Below are positions 2,927 to 37,264 of a stretch of 64,000 bases of DNA, in pieces. The stretch's first letter is position 1, and every line of letters begins with the position of its first letter. Position numbers and translations under genes: made by a program. This stretch comes from Thermoplasmata archaeon. GTDB taxonomy: Archaea; Thermoplasmatota; Thermoplasmata; Lutacidiplasmatales; UBA184. Below the pieces are notes generated by a model that was not told the DNA's origin, made no database searches, and saw only the letters and a program-made list of their open reading frames with translations. Location of the stretch: the NCBI GenBank assembly GCA_035499455.1, contig DATJYS010000007.1, positions 130,787-194,786 of the forward strand, read 5' to 3'.

Positions 2927-3367
2927 ATGGCCCGAATGAACGACCAGGAAGGTAGCAAGTTTGACGCGCCGCTGGACGTCGTCTGGAAGTACCTGCAGAG
3001 TCCCGAAGCTCACGGGGCCGCCCACCAGGGTACTCGGAACCGCGCGATGAAACCGGTCAACGACACGTCGTTCGTCGTTTCGTGGGAGCAGAACATGAAC
3101 GGGAACTGGGTCAAAGTCGCGAACCGCATCACCGTCTTCCCGCCCCTCGGGATGGTCGCCGAGGCGATCGAGGGCCCGATGTCCGGGTCCAAGATGTTCA
3201 CCGTCTACACGCCGCACGGACACCAGACCGAGGTGTCGATCTATGGGGAGATGCAGGGCGCCGGAGTCCCCCCGGCCCAGCTCGAGGCGATGGTGCGCGG
3301 CGCATGGGAGATGGCGTTCAACGAGGACTCCGCCGGCATCAAGGCGTTCCACAAGGGGTCGAAGTAA
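2927..3367 (+). CDS. SRPBCC (Bet v1 / polyketide cyclase-like) ligand-binding domain protein
   Basis: MARMNDQEGSKFDAPLDVVWKYLQSPEAH... is an SRPBCC-type N-terminus. Starts at an internal ATG of ORF 2846..3367. Confidence 0.55.
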   Translation: MARMNDQEGSKFDAPLDVVWKYLQSPEAHGAAHQGTRNRAMKPVNDTSFVVSWEQNMNGNWVKVANRITVFPPLGMVAEAIEGPMSGSKMFTVYTPHGHQTEVSIYGEMQGAGVPPAQLEAMVRGAWEMAFNEDSAGIKAFHKGSK

Positions 3368-3482
3368 TCGTCGTCGTCGTACCTCGGCCGCGGCGCCACG
3401 GCGGACGCCCCGGCCGAGCCTCCACCCGCAGCCACGATGGATCGGGTGGCGATAGCCGTCCCGGACCAGTTTGGCCCGGGCA

Positions 3483-3776
3483 CTACCGGGTGGGGCCCTC
3501 GACCGAGACCATCCTCGGAGTGGTCGCCCCGTCCTTCCGCAGCTTCAGGACGGGCGCGTACTCGGCAGAAGCGTACCACGCCCGGAGCGCCTCCGCATTC
3601 GGGAACTCGAGGATGACGACGCGCGGCGGGTTCCAGTCCCCCTCGATCACCGTGGGGGAGCCGGCGCAGAGCGTCTTCCCCCCGTACTTTTCGAGAGCCG
3701 GTCCGAACTTCTCGCGGTACTCCTTCGCCTTGGCCTGGTCGTGCCAGTCGATCTCCGTGATCAGATAGGTCGACAT
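3483..3776 (-). CDS. DUF1330 family protein
   Basis: 97 aa: MSTYLITEIDWHDQAKAKEYREKFGPALEKYGGK...VILEFPNAEALRAWYASAEY. Size and motifs match DUF1330. Confidence 0.6.
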   Translation of the reverse strand: MSTYLITEIDWHDQAKAKEYREKFGPALEKYGGKTLCAGSPTVIEGDWNPPRVVILEFPNAEALRAWYASAEYAPVLKLRKDGATTPRMVSVEGPTR

Positions 3777-20345: not shown

Positions 20346-21443
20346 TCAGAGAACGCGGCCCGCCCGCGCGATCGGCTCGCCGTCCACCGAGATCGTCCCG
20401 CCCCCCACCATCGCGAACTGGGTGAACGGGATCGTGGCCTTCCCACCGGCCACGCCGTTCCCCCCGATGCCGACGAGGATCGCTCCCTCTTCGCAATCCT
20501 CGCACGGGGGGAGCTCCCGCGCTTTGGGGTTGAGGCCGATCGACAGGTATCCGATCTTGTCCCGTCCCTTCGGTGCCGCCCGGAACGCCTTCTCGAACTG
20601 CGCCCCACCGACGCCCGTCGAGCGAGACGTGAGGCGACCGCCCTCGAAGGTCCAGCGGCTGTCCGCGAATCTCACGTAGCGGCCCATGTCGTAGACCGGA
20701 CGGTTGCTCACGAGGGTGCCGGACGCGTCGGACCTATCGAGCGGGGCGAAGATCTGGCCCGAGGGGTTCCCCTCGAGCATCCCCCGGGGTCGCAGCCCGG
20801 AGGCTCCTGGGGGGATACCGGAGGCGAGGAGGGGGCGGGTCCCTCGCAACGAGATACGCAGGTCCGTTCCGTTGGCGTGCCGGATCCGCAGCTCCGAACC
20901 GCGGGAGAGCCGGCGAGCGATGCGGTTCCCCTTCAAGCCCATCTTCCGTGCGTCCACCGCCCCGGCCTCGACGAGCCGCGCGCGCCACGCCGGTCCGCGC
21001 ACCCCGAGCCGTCGCGCCGAATCGTCGCTCGCGAGGCCGAGGGACATCCGGTAGCCTCGCAGCTTGCCTTTCCGAGCTGCGGCGTACCACTCGTCGTTGA
21101 AGGCGATGAACTTCGAGACAAAGACCCCGCGGTCGATCGCGCGAACCATCCGCGCGGGACCCCAGAAGTAGAGGTAAGCCGAGGCGTTCTCGACGACCCC
21201 TCTCTCGGCGGCCGAGAGATGCGCGAACGGCCCCGACTGTTGGGCGTCGACCGCGTTCCACCACGCCTCTTCGTCTTCGTACAGCACCGAGGCTTGGGCC
21301 CCGAGGCGTCGGGCCTCTTCGACGAACGCCCGAGTGTAGTCGAGCGTGTGGTTCCACGACTCAATGACCACCGAGTCTCCCTTTCGTATCCGAAGGTTTC
21401 GGTCGAGAATCGCTCGGGCGAGCGACGCGATCGGGGAGGGCAT
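20346..21443 (-). CDS. M29-family aminopeptidase (AmpS/aminopeptidase T-like)
   Basis: LARAILDRNLRIRKGDSVVIESW...LYEDEEAWWNA...MVGGGTISVDGEPI matches the M29 layout. Start taken at MPSPIASLARAIL. The ORF extends to 21527. Confidence 0.6.
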   Translation of the reverse strand: MPSPIASLARAILDRNLRIRKGDSVVIESWNHTLDYTRAFVEEARRLGAQASVLYEDEEAWWNAVDAQQSGPFAHLSAAERGVVENASAYLYFWGPARMVRAIDRGVFVSKFIAFNDEWYAAARKGKLRGYRMSLGLASDDSARRLGVRGPAWRARLVEAGAVDARKMGLKGNRIARRLSRGSELRIRHANGTDLRISLRGTRPLLASGIPPGASGLRPRGMLEGNPSGQIFAPLDRSDASGTLVSNRPVYDMGRYVRFADSRWTFEGGRLTSRSTGVGGAQFEKAFRAAPKGRDKIGYLSIGLNPKARELPPCEDCEEGAILVGIGGNGVAGGKATIPFTQFAMVGGGTISVDGEPIARAGRVL

Positions 21444-22548
21444 CGCCCTCCGAAGTACCCCGGGTATATACGGGGTGGTCCGAGGAACCGGCGCGGGTAG
21501 CTCCCCGGGCCTGCACGAGCGGTCCAAGCGTTCGATCGATCTGCCCCAGCCCCGCCCTCATCCGGTCGAGATCGAGCCCGATGTAGTGGACCGACATGTC
21601 CAGGTTCGCGTGGCCGAAGAGGTTCTTCAGCTGGATCAGGTCCATCCCCGAGGCATGGGCCACCCGGCCGAACGTGCGCCGGAGATCGTGATGCGAGACC
21701 CGGACCCCTCGTCGATCGAACCCGGCCGCCCGGGCGGCCTTCGCCAGCTGCTGGTCGGCCCACGACGCCGAGAAGGGGAGGACCCGACTATCGGCCGGCA
21801 CGCCCGATAGCCGACCTACGAGCTCCCGGCGCGCGATGCCGCTCAGCGGGATCTGCCGCCACTTTCCTCCGAGCCTCCCCTTCCCTCGCACGTTGAGCCA
21901 CCCTTCGTCGAGATTCACGTCGCCCGCCCGGAGTCGCAGGACCTCCACCCGGCGAAGACCATTGAATCCCTCCAGAGCGACGATGAGCCGCGCGGGACCG
22001 GAGGCACGTCGGAGCAGGGTCGCCAACTCCTCTGGCGCGATCCACCGGCGACGGGACGGGCCGCCGGCCGGGAGGCGCCAGACCTCGGGGGAGTCGGCGA
22101 CCGGGTTTCCGCTCCATCGAAGGAACTGTCGGAGGGCGGCGAAGTAGAACTGCGTCGTCGCCCGCGCCCAGTTCTTCTGGGTTCTCAGCGCGCCGACATG
22201 GCTCTCCGTCACGTCCGCCGCGCAGGTGACGGGGGGCGTCCCCCCCAGCTGGCGAAGCAAGGGCGGGATCCGGGCCAGGGTGTAGCGGATGCCCCGCTGC
22301 CAGCGCTCGCCGATCGACCTCCGCCGTGTCCACACCTCGAGAAAGGAGGTGACCTCGTCCCTCCAGTCCGTCCCCGGAGGCGGGAGCGCGTCATCGCGAC
22401 GGGCGCCGCGCGGAGCACTCCCCGGCCGCGCGGCCGGGGATCTCCGCACCGGCGCATACTCCCCTAGGGTCCGCTGAACGCCGCGGGGTTGCGCGGCGAT
22501 ATCGCACGATCGTCGATCTCCCACCGCCGAGGAAGGCGGAGTTCGCAC
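21361..22548 (-). CDS. tyrosine site-specific recombinase (XerA/XerC/D-like integrase)
   Basis: C-terminal catalytic region HHDLRRTFGRVAHASGMDLIQLKNLFGHANLDMSVHYI (H-x-x-R ... H ... Y). The N-terminal core-binding region is TSFLEVWTRRRSIGERWQRGIRYTLARI. The first ~60 aa of the ORF are low-complexity, so the true start is probably internal. The 3' tail overlaps the aminopeptidase start. Confidence 0.7.
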   Translation of the reverse strand: MRTPPSSAVGDRRSCDIAAQPRGVQRTLGEYAPVRRSPAARPGSAPRGARRDDALPPPGTDWRDEVTSFLEVWTRRRSIGERWQRGIRYTLARIPPLLRQLGGTPPVTCAADVTESHVGALRTQKNWARATTQFYFAALRQFLRWSGNPVADSPEVWRLPAGGPSRRRWIAPEELATLLRRASGPARLIVALEGFNGLRRVEVLRLRAGDVNLDEGWLNVRGKGRLGGKWRQIPLSGIARRELVGRLSGVPADSRVLPFSASWADQQLAKAARAAGFDRRGVRVSHHDLRRTFGRVAHASGMDLIQLKNLFGHANLDMSVHYIGLDLDRMRAGLGQIDRTLGPLVQARGATRAGSSDHPVYTRGTSEGDALPDRVARPSDSRPKPSDTKGRLGGH

Positions 22549-23577: not shown

Positions 23578-24039
23578 CTACTCGAGCAGGTCGATCTCGA
23601 AGGCATCGTAGAGCGCCTTCAGCCCCGTGGGGGCCGGGCGGTTCGGGCCGTGGAGCACGTCGAGCAGACCGGCGGTCTTCGGTCCCATGATCAACAGGTA
23701 TCGCGCCGGCTTCGGTCCCGGATTCCAGAAGGTATGCGCCGTCCCCCGGGGAAGGAGCACTCCCGTGCCCGCCGGAGCGTCGATCTCCTGACGGTCGTAC
23801 TGGAACCGAAGCGCTCCCTCGAGAACGTACCAGGCTTCGTCCTCGAGTCGGTGGCGATGCAGCGGCACGCCCCGGCGCGCCGTGCCTCCCCGCCCGGGAG
23901 GAGTGAGATTCTCTGAGATCACGAAGTCGCTGCTCGGGGTTCCGATCGATCGGTTGACCATCGGGGGGCGCACCACGTCCGGGTCCGGCATGGCGGGTCG
24001 AAAGCGGCGCGGCTCAAGTACACTACCCTTCCCCGACAA
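23578..24039 (-). CDS. cupin-domain protein
   Basis: PLHRHRLEDEAWYVLEGALRFQY...GTAHTF is a cupin two-motif pattern. Confidence 0.6.
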   Translation of the reverse strand: MSGKGSVLEPRRFRPAMPDPDVVRPPMVNRSIGTPSSDFVISENLTPPGRGGTARRGVPLHRHRLEDEAWYVLEGALRFQYDRQEIDAPAGTGVLLPRGTAHTFWNPGPKPARYLLIMGPKTAGLLDVLHGPNRPAPTGLKALYDAFEIDLLE

Positions 24040-24412
24040 CGGCGCGGTCTCACGTCACAGGGGTGACACAGACGTCTCCGAGACTTGGATCCGGCCACCT
24101 CTTCTGGGATGAGGCCGACGACCCGCGTTCCGGGGCGATCCATTGCGAGGAGACCGCGCTCGGGAGCCCTGCCTTCGATCTCACGGGCCTGGGGTGGCTA
24201 GACTGGATCGTATCCGTGCACGGGAACCAACGGCGAGGCGCTCGCCTCAACCGGACCGTCGACTCCCGTTTCGCCTTCTATCGAACGGTCGCGCCGATGC
24301 ACGGAGTGGTGCACGCGGCCGAGACGGGCCGCCCGCGCTGGTTGCGCCGATTCGATCCGCTGCCGACCCGGGGGTTCTTGGAACAACCGTGGGAGAGAAT
24401 TCGACGACGGCC

Positions 24413-25222
24413 ATGGTGGATCCCTCCGGAGCGCCGGGCCCGGCCTACTGTGTCGGACACCGCGGCCTTCTTATCCGAGGGACGCATTTGTCACCGACCG
24501 TGAGCAGCCCGGCGGGGAATGGCGAGCTGTTCCCGGGCGGGTTCCGCAAGCCTACCTCGATCCTGATCTCGGGAGGCAGCCGCTCGCTGCTCAAGTGGTT
24601 CGCCTACGCGGCGCTCGCCCCGTACTCCGCGAGGGTCTACTGGACGGATGTCCGGTTTCCCGGCGAGATCCTGGACCCGCTCGATCCGATGGCCGCGGGT
24701 GCGGTCGACAAGGATTCGCTCTACGTCCTGACCCCCCGCGAGCTCGAGCCGGACGACCAGAGCGCCGACCGAGCCCAGTCGGCCGCCGCCGCGCTCATCC
24801 GGTCCGACGAAGCTCCGGGGTCGCTGCAGGGGCTCGTGGAGTTCCTTCGCATGCCGTCGCATGCGCAGAAGCTGATCTCGACCACGACCGGCGATCGCCT
24901 CCCATCGATCCTCGTCACGGCCAATTCGCAGCGGCTCGCGACCGTCTACTCGCTCGAACGGATCGCCCCGCTGATGCGGGCCCTGCTCGACGCGGGGACG
25001 TGCCAGGTCGCCCTCTGGGCCGAGGCCCCGACGACCGCGATCTCGGTCTTCGAGGTCATCCTGCACCTCGAGGGTCTCGGTCCCCGGGACTGGCACGAGG
25101 CGACCATCTCGTGCGAGAAGGGGATCCGAACGGGGCCGCTGGCGGTCGGGAGAACCACGCGGCTAGGAGAGATCCCGTCCGTCGCCCGGATCCTCGACCG
25201 ATCGATCCCCGCGCTCGCCTGA
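24413..25222 (+). CDS. hypothetical protein
   Basis: The internal start (MVDPSGAPG) of ORF 24143..25222 is followed by a non-biased 270-aa sequence. The antisense ORFs are R/G/D-rich. No family assigned. Confidence 0.35.
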   Translation: MVDPSGAPGPAYCVGHRGLLIRGTHLSPTVSSPAGNGELFPGGFRKPTSILISGGSRSLLKWFAYAALAPYSARVYWTDVRFPGEILDPLDPMAAGAVDKDSLYVLTPRELEPDDQSADRAQSAAAALIRSDEAPGSLQGLVEFLRMPSHAQKLISTTTGDRLPSILVTANSQRLATVYSLERIAPLMRALLDAGTCQVALWAEAPTTAISVFEVILHLEGLGPRDWHEATISCEKGIRTGPLAVGRTTRLGEIPSVARILDRSIPALA

Positions 25223-25576
25223 AGGCGGCTCAGAACGCGCCGATATCGGCCGGAACGGTCGCGCCGGCCCGACAACTCCTCCTAATGTAACACCGCGGCC
25301 TACCGTGCTCAGTCATGCCGAAGAAGAAGACGAAGAGCAAGAAGAAGAGGTAACGGCCCCGGCCGGCCGTGTTCCTTCGCCCAGGGGATTGCTTGCGTTA
25401 ACCTCTCACCCTGCTCGAATGAGCAGGGGATGTTTTCGGATCCCCGTTTGGAATCCACGGAGGGCGCTCCCGGGAGGATTGCGATTTCAACCGAATCGAA
25501 ACGGCGGCCTGCGGGCCGTTTCGCGGTGTCGCCGACTTTCCCATAGACCGACGACGCGTCGGGGGATCGATGGACC

Positions 25577-26026
25577 ATGGACACGTACGTGGAACGAGAG
25601 GAGATCGAGGTGCTGCGGGTGCGAGCCGATATGAAGGGCGCCGGTCCGGCGGAGGCCTTTCGCCTCCTCGAGTCGAAGCTCGCCAGCCTGCGCGGGCGCC
25701 ACTTCTACGGTACGATCCGTATCCTTCCCGAGGGGGAAGAGTACTTCGCCTGCGTCCAGCGTCAGGAGGGGGAGGAGCCTGAGAGGATGGATCTCGAGCT
25801 CGGGCGCATCCCCGGCGGGCTGTACGTCCGTCGAAAGATCACCGACTGGGAGAGCATCATCGCGGCCGGAAGGCTCCCCTCGATCGGTCGGGAGATGGCC
25901 GAGACCTACACCGTCGACCCGTCTCGACCCGAGATCGAGTACTATCGGAGCAGGAAGGAGCTACATCTGCTCGTTCCGGTCCTGGTTCGTGCTCCTCTCG
26001 AGGCCGGAACGTCGTCGCGACCGTAG
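25577..26026 (+). CDS. GyrI-like small-molecule-binding domain protein
   Basis: 149 aa with an effector-binding-domain-like pattern (FYGTIRILPEGEEYFACVQ..., GGLYVRRKI). Lies 15 nt upstream of the YcaQ-like gene on the same strand. Confidence 0.45.
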   Translation: MDTYVEREEIEVLRVRADMKGAGPAEAFRLLESKLASLRGRHFYGTIRILPEGEEYFACVQRQEGEEPERMDLELGRIPGGLYVRRKITDWESIIAAGRLPSIGREMAETYTVDPSRPEIEYYRSRKELHLLVPVLVRAPLEAGTSSRP

Positions 26027-26041
26027 CGACCGAAAGCGGAG

Positions 26042-27307
26042 GTGACGACCGGCCCGATGAACCGCGCTCCGATTCGCGCGTCGCTCCGGTCGGTCCGCCG
26101 ACTGGCGGTCGCCAACCAGCATCTCGGGCCGCGGCGCCGGCGCCGGTCCCGATCGGAGGAGATCCTTTCCGTGGTCCGCGAACTGGGTTTCGTGCAGTGG
26201 GATCCTGTCAGCATCGTCGCGCCGTCCCACCTGATCTCCCTCTGGAATCGCGTCGACGCGTTTCGAGCGTCGGACCTGGAGCGCCTGCTCTGGGTCGACA
26301 AGAAGCTGTTCGAGCACTGGACGCCGCTGGCGTCGATCGTCCTCACCGAGGACTACCCGCTCTACCACTCGCTCATGCGCCGGTACCCTGGGTCCCTGTC
26401 GAAGTCGTGGGGGAGCCATCGGATCCGCGCGCAGAGGTTTCTCGATGACCACCGGGACCTGCGCGCCCGGATCCTCCGGCGCCTTCGCGAGGGACCGTGT
26501 ACGCTGGGCGATTTCGAAGACCACGCGCGGACGCGTCGGAACGACGGGGAGTGGACGCCCACGAGCACGGTCGCGCACATGCTGTTCCACCTGCTCATGA
26601 GCGGGGACGTGATGGTCGTCGGCCATCAAGGGAACCAGAATCTCTGGGGGCTGGCCGAGCGGTTCCTACCGAGCTGGGTCGACCAGACCGCCCTCTCCGA
26701 GGAGGCGGCCGAACAGGAAGCGGCCGTGCGAGCGATCCATGCGCTCGGGACCGCGACTCCCCGGGAGATCACCCTGTATTTCGTCCGAGGACGGTACGCG
26801 AATCTGAAGGCGACCCTTCGCCGCCTCGAAGAGGGGTCGCGCATCCGCCGGGTGGAGGTCGAAGGGCTCACCGGACGGGAGGAGCGGTACCTTCTCGCCG
26901 AGGACGAACCCGTTCTCGACTCCGTCTCGTCGAGCGCGTGGGAGCCCCGACTCTCGCTCCTCCCCCCGTTCGACAACATGCTCGGCCACATCGAGCGGAC
27001 GAAGCGCCTGTTCGATTTCGACTACGTCCGGGAGCAGTTCTTGCCGAAGGAGAAGCGGCGGTACGGGACGTACGTGTTGCCGATACTCTGGGGGGAACGG
27101 TTCATTGGCCGGATCGATCCTCGGCTCGACAAGGCCCGCGGCGAGCTCGCAATCCAGGCCGTCCACGCCGAACCGGGCGCGCCCCGGGACCGAGAGGTCG
27201 TCGCCGAGATCGGCGCGACGATCGAGCGATTCGCGTCGTTCCTCGGGGCGAGCCGAGTGAGCTACTCGGGCCGGGTCCCCGCGATCTGGAAGGGAACGCT
27301 TCGGTAG
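26042..27307 (+). CDS. YcaQ/AlkZ-family (HTH_42, DUF1006) winged-helix DNA glycosylase-like protein
   Basis: ANQHLGPRRRRRSRSEEILSVVRELGFVQWDPVSIVAPSHLISLWNRV is the characteristic N-terminus of the YcaQ/HTH_42 family. ~420 aa. Confidence 0.6.
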   Translation: MTTGPMNRAPIRASLRSVRRLAVANQHLGPRRRRRSRSEEILSVVRELGFVQWDPVSIVAPSHLISLWNRVDAFRASDLERLLWVDKKLFEHWTPLASIVLTEDYPLYHSLMRRYPGSLSKSWGSHRIRAQRFLDDHRDLRARILRRLREGPCTLGDFEDHARTRRNDGEWTPTSTVAHMLFHLLMSGDVMVVGHQGNQNLWGLAERFLPSWVDQTALSEEAAEQEAAVRAIHALGTATPREITLYFVRGRYANLKATLRRLEEGSRIRRVEVEGLTGREERYLLAEDEPVLDSVSSSAWEPRLSLLPPFDNMLGHIERTKRLFDFDYVREQFLPKEKRRYGTYVLPILWGERFIGRIDPRLDKARGELAIQAVHAEPGAPRDREVVAEIGATIERFASFLGASRVSYSGRVPAIWKGTLR

Positions 27308-37214: not shown

Positions 37215-37262
37215 GAGGAGGGGGGCGGCGTTATATAGGTATTTAAACAGTATATAAGAGAA
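37215..37262. promoter_or_regulatory. strong AT-rich promoter with tandem TATA boxes upstream of tbp
   Basis: The motif ttatataggtatttaaacagtatataagagaacc lies immediately 5' of the ATGATG start at 37265. It is the most AT-rich island in the window. Confidence 0.65.
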
Positions 37263-37264
37263 CC

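Follow-up and report, generated by a model that had tools for sequence, protein, structure and literature searches.

The stretch analysed here, referred to as the window, comprises 64 kb of a Thermoplasmata metagenome-assembled genome (ENA record ERZ27256576, contig k141_1583123), and its GC content of 69.2% agrees with the value of about 70% given by an earlier sequence-only reading of the same DNA. Between the stop codon of an upstream conserved hypothetical gene at position 25222 and the ATG of a GyrI-like gene at 25577 lies a spacer of 354 bp, which that reading had likewise placed correctly as an intergenic region of about 350 bp just upstream of the GyrI-like/YcaQ genes. The flanking genes carry the consecutive NCBI locus tags VML94_08265 and VML94_08270, and therefore no annotated feature lies between them. 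The spacer contains a 12-codon lysine-rich open reading frame (micro-ORF) preceded by a TATA-like box and followed by a hairpin with a T-run, and, closer to the GyrI-like gene, a second set of promoter-like signals (Table 1). As the host is an archaeon, the relevant signals are TATA boxes, leaderless mRNAs and oligo-T termination rather than sigma-70 promoters; the bacterial framework in which the locus had first been described is given up here, and this changes how both the promoter and the terminator are read. A scan for sigma-70 promoters found none, which is irrelevant to an archaeon, and a tRNA/tmRNA scan also found none.

The micro-ORF has the codons ATG CCG AAG AAG AAG ACG AAG AGC AAG AAG AAG AGG TAA, with lysine at 8 of the 12 positions (all AAG) and one arginine (AGG), i.e., 75% Lys/Arg (K/R; 9/12). 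Reading of the sequence bore out the 12-codon frame at 25315-25353 ending in TAA, as well as the in-frame TAA reported upstream of its ATG, which is located at 25288-25290, within the TATA-like box. The description of the segment as strikingly A/G-rich also proved accurate, since the segment 25321-25356 is the top 36-mer of the entire 64 kb both for purines (32/36) and for A (19/36), and the degenerate (GAA)n array is the sole period-3 tandem repeat that Tandem Repeats Finder (TRF) detected in the window. In the genes of the window lysine accounts for 2.6% and arginine for 10% of the codons, giving an Arg:Lys ratio of 4:1; AAG makes up 91% of the lysine codons, CCG, ACG and AGC are also common codons in this genome, and the codons of the micro-ORF fit this usage.

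The TATA-like box TAATGTAA is one of just 19 octamers in the 64 kb with at least seven A/T out of eight. Several genes of the window with a high GC content at third codon positions (GC3) carry an AT-rich box 20-23 nt from their ATG, and the spacing of the box matches the geometry of leaderless archaeal genes, which the micro-ORF shares. On the 3' side, the hairpin CCCTGCTC-GAAT-GAGCAGGG starts 55 nt past the stop codon and is followed by GATG-TTTT. Its perfect 8-bp stem had been recognised before, at a position (25398-25417) 11 nt away from the true one (25409-25428), and the distance of about 45 nt then given between the ORF and the hairpin is replaced by the 55 nt measured here. TTTT occurs four times on the plus strand of the window, and the perfect 8-bp hairpin combined with TTTT is the sole instance on either strand, block shuffles yielding 0.08 on average. 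The fold predicted for the putative transcript, 25315-25440, has an energy of -47.2 kcal/mol and a z-score of -1.85 (range -1.4 to -1.85); the predicted folds leave the purine tract mostly unpaired, show a structured 3' part and keep the terminal hairpin.

Table 1. Features of the spacer and of the analogous loci mentioned in the text; positions of L loci are those of the respective locus (MFE, minimum free energy).
Feature	Position	Strand	Remarks
TATA-like box TAATGTAA	25283-25290	+	-32..-25 from the ATG of the micro-ORF, 24 nt between; putative promoter
Micro-ORF, 12 codons + TAA, MPKKKTKSKKKR*	25315-25353	+	sequence read; translation putative
Degenerate triplet repeat (GAA/AAG)n within the micro-ORF	25320-25348	+	TRF: period 3, 9.7 copies, 76% matches
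Small G+C hairpin ACGGCC-CCGGCC-GGCCGT just after the stop codon	25353-25370	+	in MFE and centroid folds of 25315-25440; prediction only, without comparative support
Perfect 8-bp hairpin CCCTGCTC-GAAT-GAGCAGGG, terminator-like	25409-25428	+	6 G-C pairs; intact in MFE folds
TTTT run, putative transcript end	25433-25436	+	4 nt past the hairpin; implied RNA about 120 nt
Promoter region of the GyrI-like gene, outside the putative mini-gene	25497-25547	+	inverted repeat, conserved motif and TATA-like box
9-bp perfect inverted repeat CGAAACGGC/GCCGTTTCG	25497-25505 / 25515-25523	+	3' arm holds CGTTTCG
Conserved motif CGTTTCG	25517-25523	+	about -59 from the GyrI-like ATG
TATA-like box CCCATAGA	25540-25547	+	CTTAAG/CTTAGG/GATAAG-type box
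Bacterial-set ORF, L069	2931-2969		near SerRS/hibernation factor/secA
Bacterial-set ORF, L045	6356-6394	-	near SerRS/hibernation factor/secA
Bacterial-set ORF, L046	8197-8235		near SerRS/hibernation factor/secA
Bacterial-set ORF, L065	198-236		near SerRS/hibernation factor/secA
Low-GC hairpin subfamily, L062	816-960
Low-GC hairpin subfamily, L039	127-270
Low-GC hairpin subfamily, L086	3607-3830
Low-GC hairpin subfamily, L061	3700-3919	-

The explanation that we favour, with about even confidence, is that of a self-contained, leaderless mini-gene within the spacer, transcribed on its own and encoding an oligolysine peptide. The TATA-like box would direct transcription starting at the ATG at 25315 or within a few nucleotides of it, so that the mRNA would be leaderless, and the 12-codon frame would be translated into MPKKKTKSKKKR; as methionine before proline is usually removed, the product would be an oligolysine peptide of 11 residues. 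The transcript of about 120 nt would end at the hairpin and the T-run, and the unit would be independent of the downstream GyrI-like and AlkZ-like genes, which have a conserved promoter of their own. The product may be a small polycation binding RNA or DNA, its nearest functional analogy being the ribosomal proteins eL41 and bS22. Transcription and translation are here inferred from the sequence, and so, above all, is what the peptide does; a nucleic-acid- or ribosome-binding role is suggested by analogy. A small basic peptide gene was among the options listed by the sequence-only reading, and it is the best supported of them: the promoter geometry, the unique terminator-like signal and the archaeal and Shine-Dalgarno-led analogues described below speak for it, and the lack of an orthologue of the window copy speaks against it.

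Analogous ORFs come from one scan of JGI (Joint Genome Institute) metagenomes with the pattern ATG-CCN, eight ARR codons, two free codons and TRR, a strict pattern that admits exactly 12 codons and only ARR at the basic positions; it returned 57 loci, among them poly(A) stretches and matches that are out of frame within long genes. Two of these loci, L087 and L088 (GC 0.54-0.56), have an MTAP-amidohydrolase gene pair with MPKKKAKKKKKK* downstream of it. The third lineage, L104-L107, was fetched by synteny rather than by pattern; its amidohydrolase is 63-66% identical and it has the same TATA box. The presence of PolB, CDC48 and a Rio-type kinase marks these loci (L087, L088 and L104-L107) as archaeal, and the named homologues of the flanking amidohydrolase belong to Nitrososphaeria/Thermoproteota. 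Across the three lineages the amidohydrolase identities are 63-70%, and the spacers do not align outside the TATA box and the ORF; between L087 and L088 the amidohydrolases are 69% identical, with two conserved islands in the spacers, the TATA box CCGATAGATTTAAGAGC and, about 26 nt further on, TACACCAA-ATGCCGAAGAAGAAGGCAAAGAAGAAGAAGAA(A/G)AAG-T(GA/AG); in the archaeal group the ORF starts with ATGCCGAAGAAGAAGGC(A/G)AAG..., about 26 nt past CCGATAGATTTAAGAGC. The ORFs of L087 and L088 are identical in 37 of 39 nt, differing by one synonymous change and in the stop codon (TGA/TAG). L104 encodes MPKKKAKKKAKKKK*, with 6 additional nucleotides in frame and one synonymous change, GCA/GCG. In the four archaeal versions the stop codons TGA, TAG and TAA stand at the same place; a hairpin with T5-7 is found about 110 nt past the stop codon in all three archaeal lineages, and the 3' parts of the archaeal versions are not conserved in sequence. 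Judging from these sequences, the archaeal analogue ORFs are under purifying selection.

With L087, L088 and L104 the window ORF has in common ATGCCGAAGAAGAAG, a small residue at position 6 and AAG at position 7, and it also shares with the archaeal group the stop codon right after the tract, the spacing of the TATA box (24 vs 26 nt) and the hairpin with a T-run. The first 15 nt of the window ORF are identical to those of the archaeal micro-ORF family. Outside the set picked out by the pattern, about 360 kb of other archaeal DNA contained ATG-started ORFs with a length of 7-25 codons and a K/R share of 55% or more only in one syntenic family, L104-L107. The archaeal analogues are likewise all-Lys. 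It can be added that positions 25346-25356, i.e., the last codons and the stop of the window ORF, read AAGAGGTAA and resemble an extended Shine-Dalgarno sequence, AGGAGGTGATC being the complement of the 3' end of 16S rRNA; the ORF ends of L088 and L104 have AAGAAGTGATC. This Shine-Dalgarno-like ORF end may be a coincidence.

Among the low-GC loci returned by the scan, a Shine-Dalgarno core is present at -18..-4 in 12 of the 32 unique 12-codon matches, compared with 2.7% of all ATGs there (p = 2e-11). Three different nucleotide sequences code for the peptide MPKKRKKRKKKR; they have CGG vs AGA for arginine and do not share one stop codon. In a bacterial subset the 12-codon polybasic ORF lies between or near serS, hpf (S30AE) and secA, the SerRS proteins being 58% and the SecA proteins 46% identical; a G-rich Shine-Dalgarno-like site is located upstream of it in L069, L045 and L046, and none in L065. 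In a further subfamily, with the peptides MPKKKRKRKKKR, MPRKKGKKKKKR and MPKKKYKRKKRR, a similar hairpin (…agttgggcag…ctgccact…) comes after the micro-ORF, and then a gene of about 320 aa; the gene of L062 and that of L061 weakly match an ArsR-type helix-turn-helix, and that of L086 matches nothing in Pfam. Just 5' of the micro-ORF of L086, a contig of 27% GC, an odd neighbour is found at 3128-3586, a 152-aa protein matching PF19244 (poxvirus-type poly(A) polymerase catalytic subunit) at E = 1e-11. A viral origin was rejected, as a scan of viral contigs gave only two non-stop matches inside long ORFs and the hairpin is absent from viral contigs; PHROGs gave nothing for the neighbours of the analogues.

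Several observations weigh against a mini-gene. No orthologue of the window copy was found in the metagenome scan or beside the homologues of either flanking gene, all of which lack synteny with the window. Homologues of the GyrI-like protein, 41-76% identical, are present at 33 genome loci and on 4 metagenome contigs, in gene neighbourhoods that differ everywhere, and none of these 37 loci has a polybasic micro-ORF or similarity to the spacer; homologues of the upstream protein, 67-72% identical to that of the window, are encoded at six loci, which show no micro-ORF, no synteny and no similar spacer. The conservation in related genomes that the sequence-only reading had proposed to look for is missing at the loci of both kinds. 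No match of the scan, with its strict pattern, exceeded 56% GC, although contigs of related Thermoplasmata are numerous at JGI. With a peptide this short and of such low complexity homology cannot be argued, and the pattern that picked out the metagenome analogues was itself modelled on the peptide, their similarity being partly built into the search. Lysine itself is unexpected where Arg:Lys is 4:1, as arginine would be expected if charge alone mattered. The tract is a degenerate (AAG)n repeat that slippage could have made, and with such an origin possible, in-frame indels are weak evidence for coding. The promoter and terminator signals are modest: the CTCCTCC 5' of the TATA-like box is unlike a purine-rich B recognition element, the box could be read in either orientation, T4 is a short signal for archaeal termination, and a local 2-kb scan with looser criteria found terminator-like sites about as frequent as expected. 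The idea of ribosome binding is weakened by the size of the peptide, whose 12 residues are half those of the shortest known member, eL41 (24-25 aa). Because of these weaknesses an accidental repeat, a small RNA and an attenuator are kept as rival explanations.

The rival that survives best, though unlikely, is a non-functional accident: an (AAG)n microsatellite generated by slippage and now decaying, with an ATG, a TAA, an AT-rich box and a hairpin with T4 placed around it by coincidence and with no expression. The period-3 repeat with 76% matches detected by TRF, the lack of orthologues at the flanks in relatives and of high-GC matches in the metagenome scan, and the expected frequency of terminator-like sites under looser criteria are all consistent with it. 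So is the fold of the whole 354-nt region, which has no extra stability over shuffled sequences (z -0.25 and -0.61 on the two strands). However, the array is the sole one of period 3 in 64 kb, and an A-rich tract should erode fast in a genome of 69% GC. An accident must also account for the alignment of four independent features, namely a box at the distance typical of the genome, an ATG and a stop codon exactly bracketing the tract, a unique hairpin with T4, and 15 initial nucleotides identical to those of a conserved archaeal family.

Unlikely to nearly the same degree is a small non-coding RNA of about 120 nt, whose unpaired, purine-rich 5' end would pair with pyrimidine-rich targets, the reading frame being incidental or occasionally translated. 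The evidence for a promoter and a terminator applies equally to such an RNA, a largely unpaired purine tract followed by a structured 3' part is what the predicted folds give, and the ORFs of L087 and L088 are conserved at the nucleotide level beyond the need of selection on the peptide. Rfam, on the other hand, gave no relevant match in the spacer at E <= 10 or in the window at the gathering threshold, and none at 20 analogous loci. The sequence-only reading had proposed an Rfam scan and RNA folding, and neither turned in favour of the structured small RNA that it had named as an option: Rfam was negative, the whole spacer folds like its shuffled versions and the fold of the putative transcript is that given above, so that the small RNA stays among the rivals without positive support. 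That the peptide rather than the RNA is functional is suggested by the stop codons, which are kept in place as TGA, TAG or TAA in the four archaeal versions, by the Shine-Dalgarno sites of the low-GC analogues, by identical peptides encoded by different nucleotide sequences, and by the 3' regions, which are not conserved.

The spacer can be resolved into two units, the putative mini-gene and the conserved promoter of its neighbour. In its right third the spacer carries the GyrI-like gene's promoter region, from which the micro-ORF unit with its terminator-like signal stands apart. GTTTC[A/G] or a one-mismatch variant of it (GTTCCA, ATTTCA) is present at -56..-61 from the ATG in 19 of 28 GyrI-like loci, the window included, and is followed about 20 nt further on by a box of the CTTAAG/CTTAGG/GATAAG type. 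In Thermoplasmata GyrI-like loci (L002-L038, region of about -61..-30) the fuller form of the motif at -56..-61 is ccGTTTCA(nn)ACCTC. This conserved promoter or operator element, whose CGTTTCG in the window is the 3' arm of the inverted repeat, is probably the binding site of a regulator.

This promoter bears directly on the leader peptide or attenuator of the GyrI-like/YcaQ operon that the sequence-only reading had considered. Acting in cis on the GyrI-like/AlkZ-like operon, such a leader would couple translation of its lysine-codon run, as a sensor of Lys-tRNA or ribosome speed, to the choice between a stop and read-through at the hairpin with the T-run. A codon-run ORF and then a hairpin with a T-run, all lying upstream of an operon and on its strand, form the classic attenuator layout, known from leader-peptide attenuators of the hisL, thrL, pheL and trpL type; the locus resembles these in its short ORF with a run of codons for one amino acid (8/12 Lys), its G+C hairpin and its T-run, the T4 being short. 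Unlike in these systems, 55 nt separate the stop codon and the hairpin, the host is archaeal, and no antiterminator pairing that would compete with the terminator arm was found in the MFE or centroid folds, which are predictions. Moreover, the downstream genes, GyrI-like and AlkZ-like, are unrelated to lysine and are served by the motif at -59 and the TATA-like box within the spacer; the ORF is not kept upstream of their orthologues, being absent from all 37 GyrI-like homologue loci, and the archaeal and bacterial analogues precede unrelated genes. A leader function for the GyrI-like operon is, accordingly, not supported, and we regard it as very improbable.

Leaderless codon-run ORFs that regulate operons are nevertheless known from mycobacteria, where the polycysteine short ORFs of the 'Cys ribulon' are the first cistrons of cysteine-metabolism operons and uncover the next gene's ribosome-binding site (bioRxiv 10.1101/834739). 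The window ORF is similar to them in being unannotated, putatively leaderless and composed mostly of codons for one amino acid, but a terminator-like signal and a separate conserved promoter precede the GyrI-like gene, and no lysine-related gene follows. Lysine-encoding A-rich tracts that act as translational attenuators depend on consecutive A (AAA) inside long ORFs (PMC4552401); the run of lysine codons is a common trait, whereas in the window all eight are AAG and the tract is nearly the whole gene.

A function of the minus strand, either as a CU-rich RNA (…CCUCUUCUUCUUGCUCUUCGUCUUCUUCUUCGG…) acting as an anti-Shine-Dalgarno-like regulator or through a 91-aa ORF at 25584-25309, is barely credible: the AT-rich box is nearly symmetric, so that its sequence does not fix its orientation, and the 91-aa ORF does span the spacer, but the spacer has no codon-position GC signal in any frame, an AT-rich box is missing to the right of the tract, as is a minus-strand T-run in 24000-27000, and the analogues are all read in the lysine frame, on the strand that carries their Shine-Dalgarno site or TATA box. 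The ORFs of 109, 91 and 71 aa across the spacer were rejected as hidden genes, as they have no Pfam match (that of the 109- and 91-aa ORFs being sought up to E 1), and the antisense 109-aa ORF with a TTG start over the 3' end of the upstream gene was ruled out by the GC content of first and second codon positions.

If the oligolysine mini-gene is real, its product can be compared with the tiny polybasic ribosomal proteins eL41 of archaea and eukaryotes, bS22 of Actinobacteria, Bacteroidetes and Borrelia, and mS38 of mitochondria, which contain about 60% K/R or more and are often unannotated (PMC7005279, PMC10618245, PMC9932298). eL41 is patchy in its distribution, and many archaeal genomes are reported to lack it or to have no identified copy (PMC7005279, PMC9932298, PMC10618245). 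Like these proteins, the window peptide is rich in basic residues (75% K/R), stand-alone and unannotated. Unlike them, with their 24-37 residues forming a helix in the h27/h44/h45 pocket, it has 12 residues (11 without Met; 12-14 in the analogues), and it is called Lys-only where they are mixed Arg/Lys, and its sequence is too short to compare.

The window ORF fits a class of polybasic mini-genes of 12-14 codons that is delineated here and unpublished, defined by ATG-CCN, at least 75% K/R and a stop codon right after the tract, and it also has the signals of this class, which are a TATA box at about -32..-25 in archaea or a Shine-Dalgarno site in the low-GC, partly bacterial members, and a hairpin with a T-run. 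Conservation at orthologous positions holds for the Nitrososphaeria-type trio and for the SerRS/SecA bacterial set; it was not found for the lineage of the window, at either flank or in the metagenome scan, which again counts against a mini-gene there. A bold and improbable conjecture is that the window ORF is one of a class, common to both domains, of conserved protein-coding genes shorter than any seen so far, independently transcribed 12-14-codon Lys/Arg genes that are leaderless with a TATA box in archaea and Shine-Dalgarno-led near serS, hpf or secA in bacteria; they would encode abundant RNA-bound polycations of 11-13 residues, one possibility being that these fill the eL41/bS22 pocket of the small subunit where neither gene is found. 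Six peptide strings are absent from the searchable literature, and the literature on polylysine leaders, polybasic short ORFs and new ribosomal proteins provided analogies only.

Genes of this size are missed by all standard gene callers and protein databases, with their minimum of 20-30 residues, and tryptic proteomics misses such peptides because of their all-K/R composition. Should the class be real, archaeal and bacterial cells contain a conserved component that has gone unnoticed, the size range of conserved protein-coding genes extends down to about a dozen codons, and many lineages gain a concrete candidate for their "missing" tiny basic ribosomal proteins. The interest of the locus rests mostly on the class to which it points rather than on proof for this single locus, and it provides a search rule applicable to all genomes: a TATA box or Shine-Dalgarno site, ATG-CCN, a K/R run, a stop codon and a hairpin with a T-run.

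The gene upstream of the spacer, at 24503-25222 on the plus strand, encodes a member of a protein family of about 240 aa without a Pfam domain, which has 92 homologues at E <= 1e-5, mostly 60-72% identical and with named sources that are all Thermoplasmata. About 2 kb upstream of it, at 21361-22548 on the minus strand, there is a gene for a tyrosine recombinase of the phage-integrase family, accompanied by alpha/beta hydrolase and cupin genes. In L099 (1-382) the homologue of the 240-aa gene is also found near integrase and cupin genes, and this neighbourhood may be a variable or integrated region. Elsewhere in the window, the strongest AT-rich stretch, GTTATATAGGTATTTAAACAGTATATAAGA at 37230-37264, is located immediately 5' of the ATG of a 215-aa gene with a GC3 of 0.90 and looks like a strong or composite archaeal promoter.

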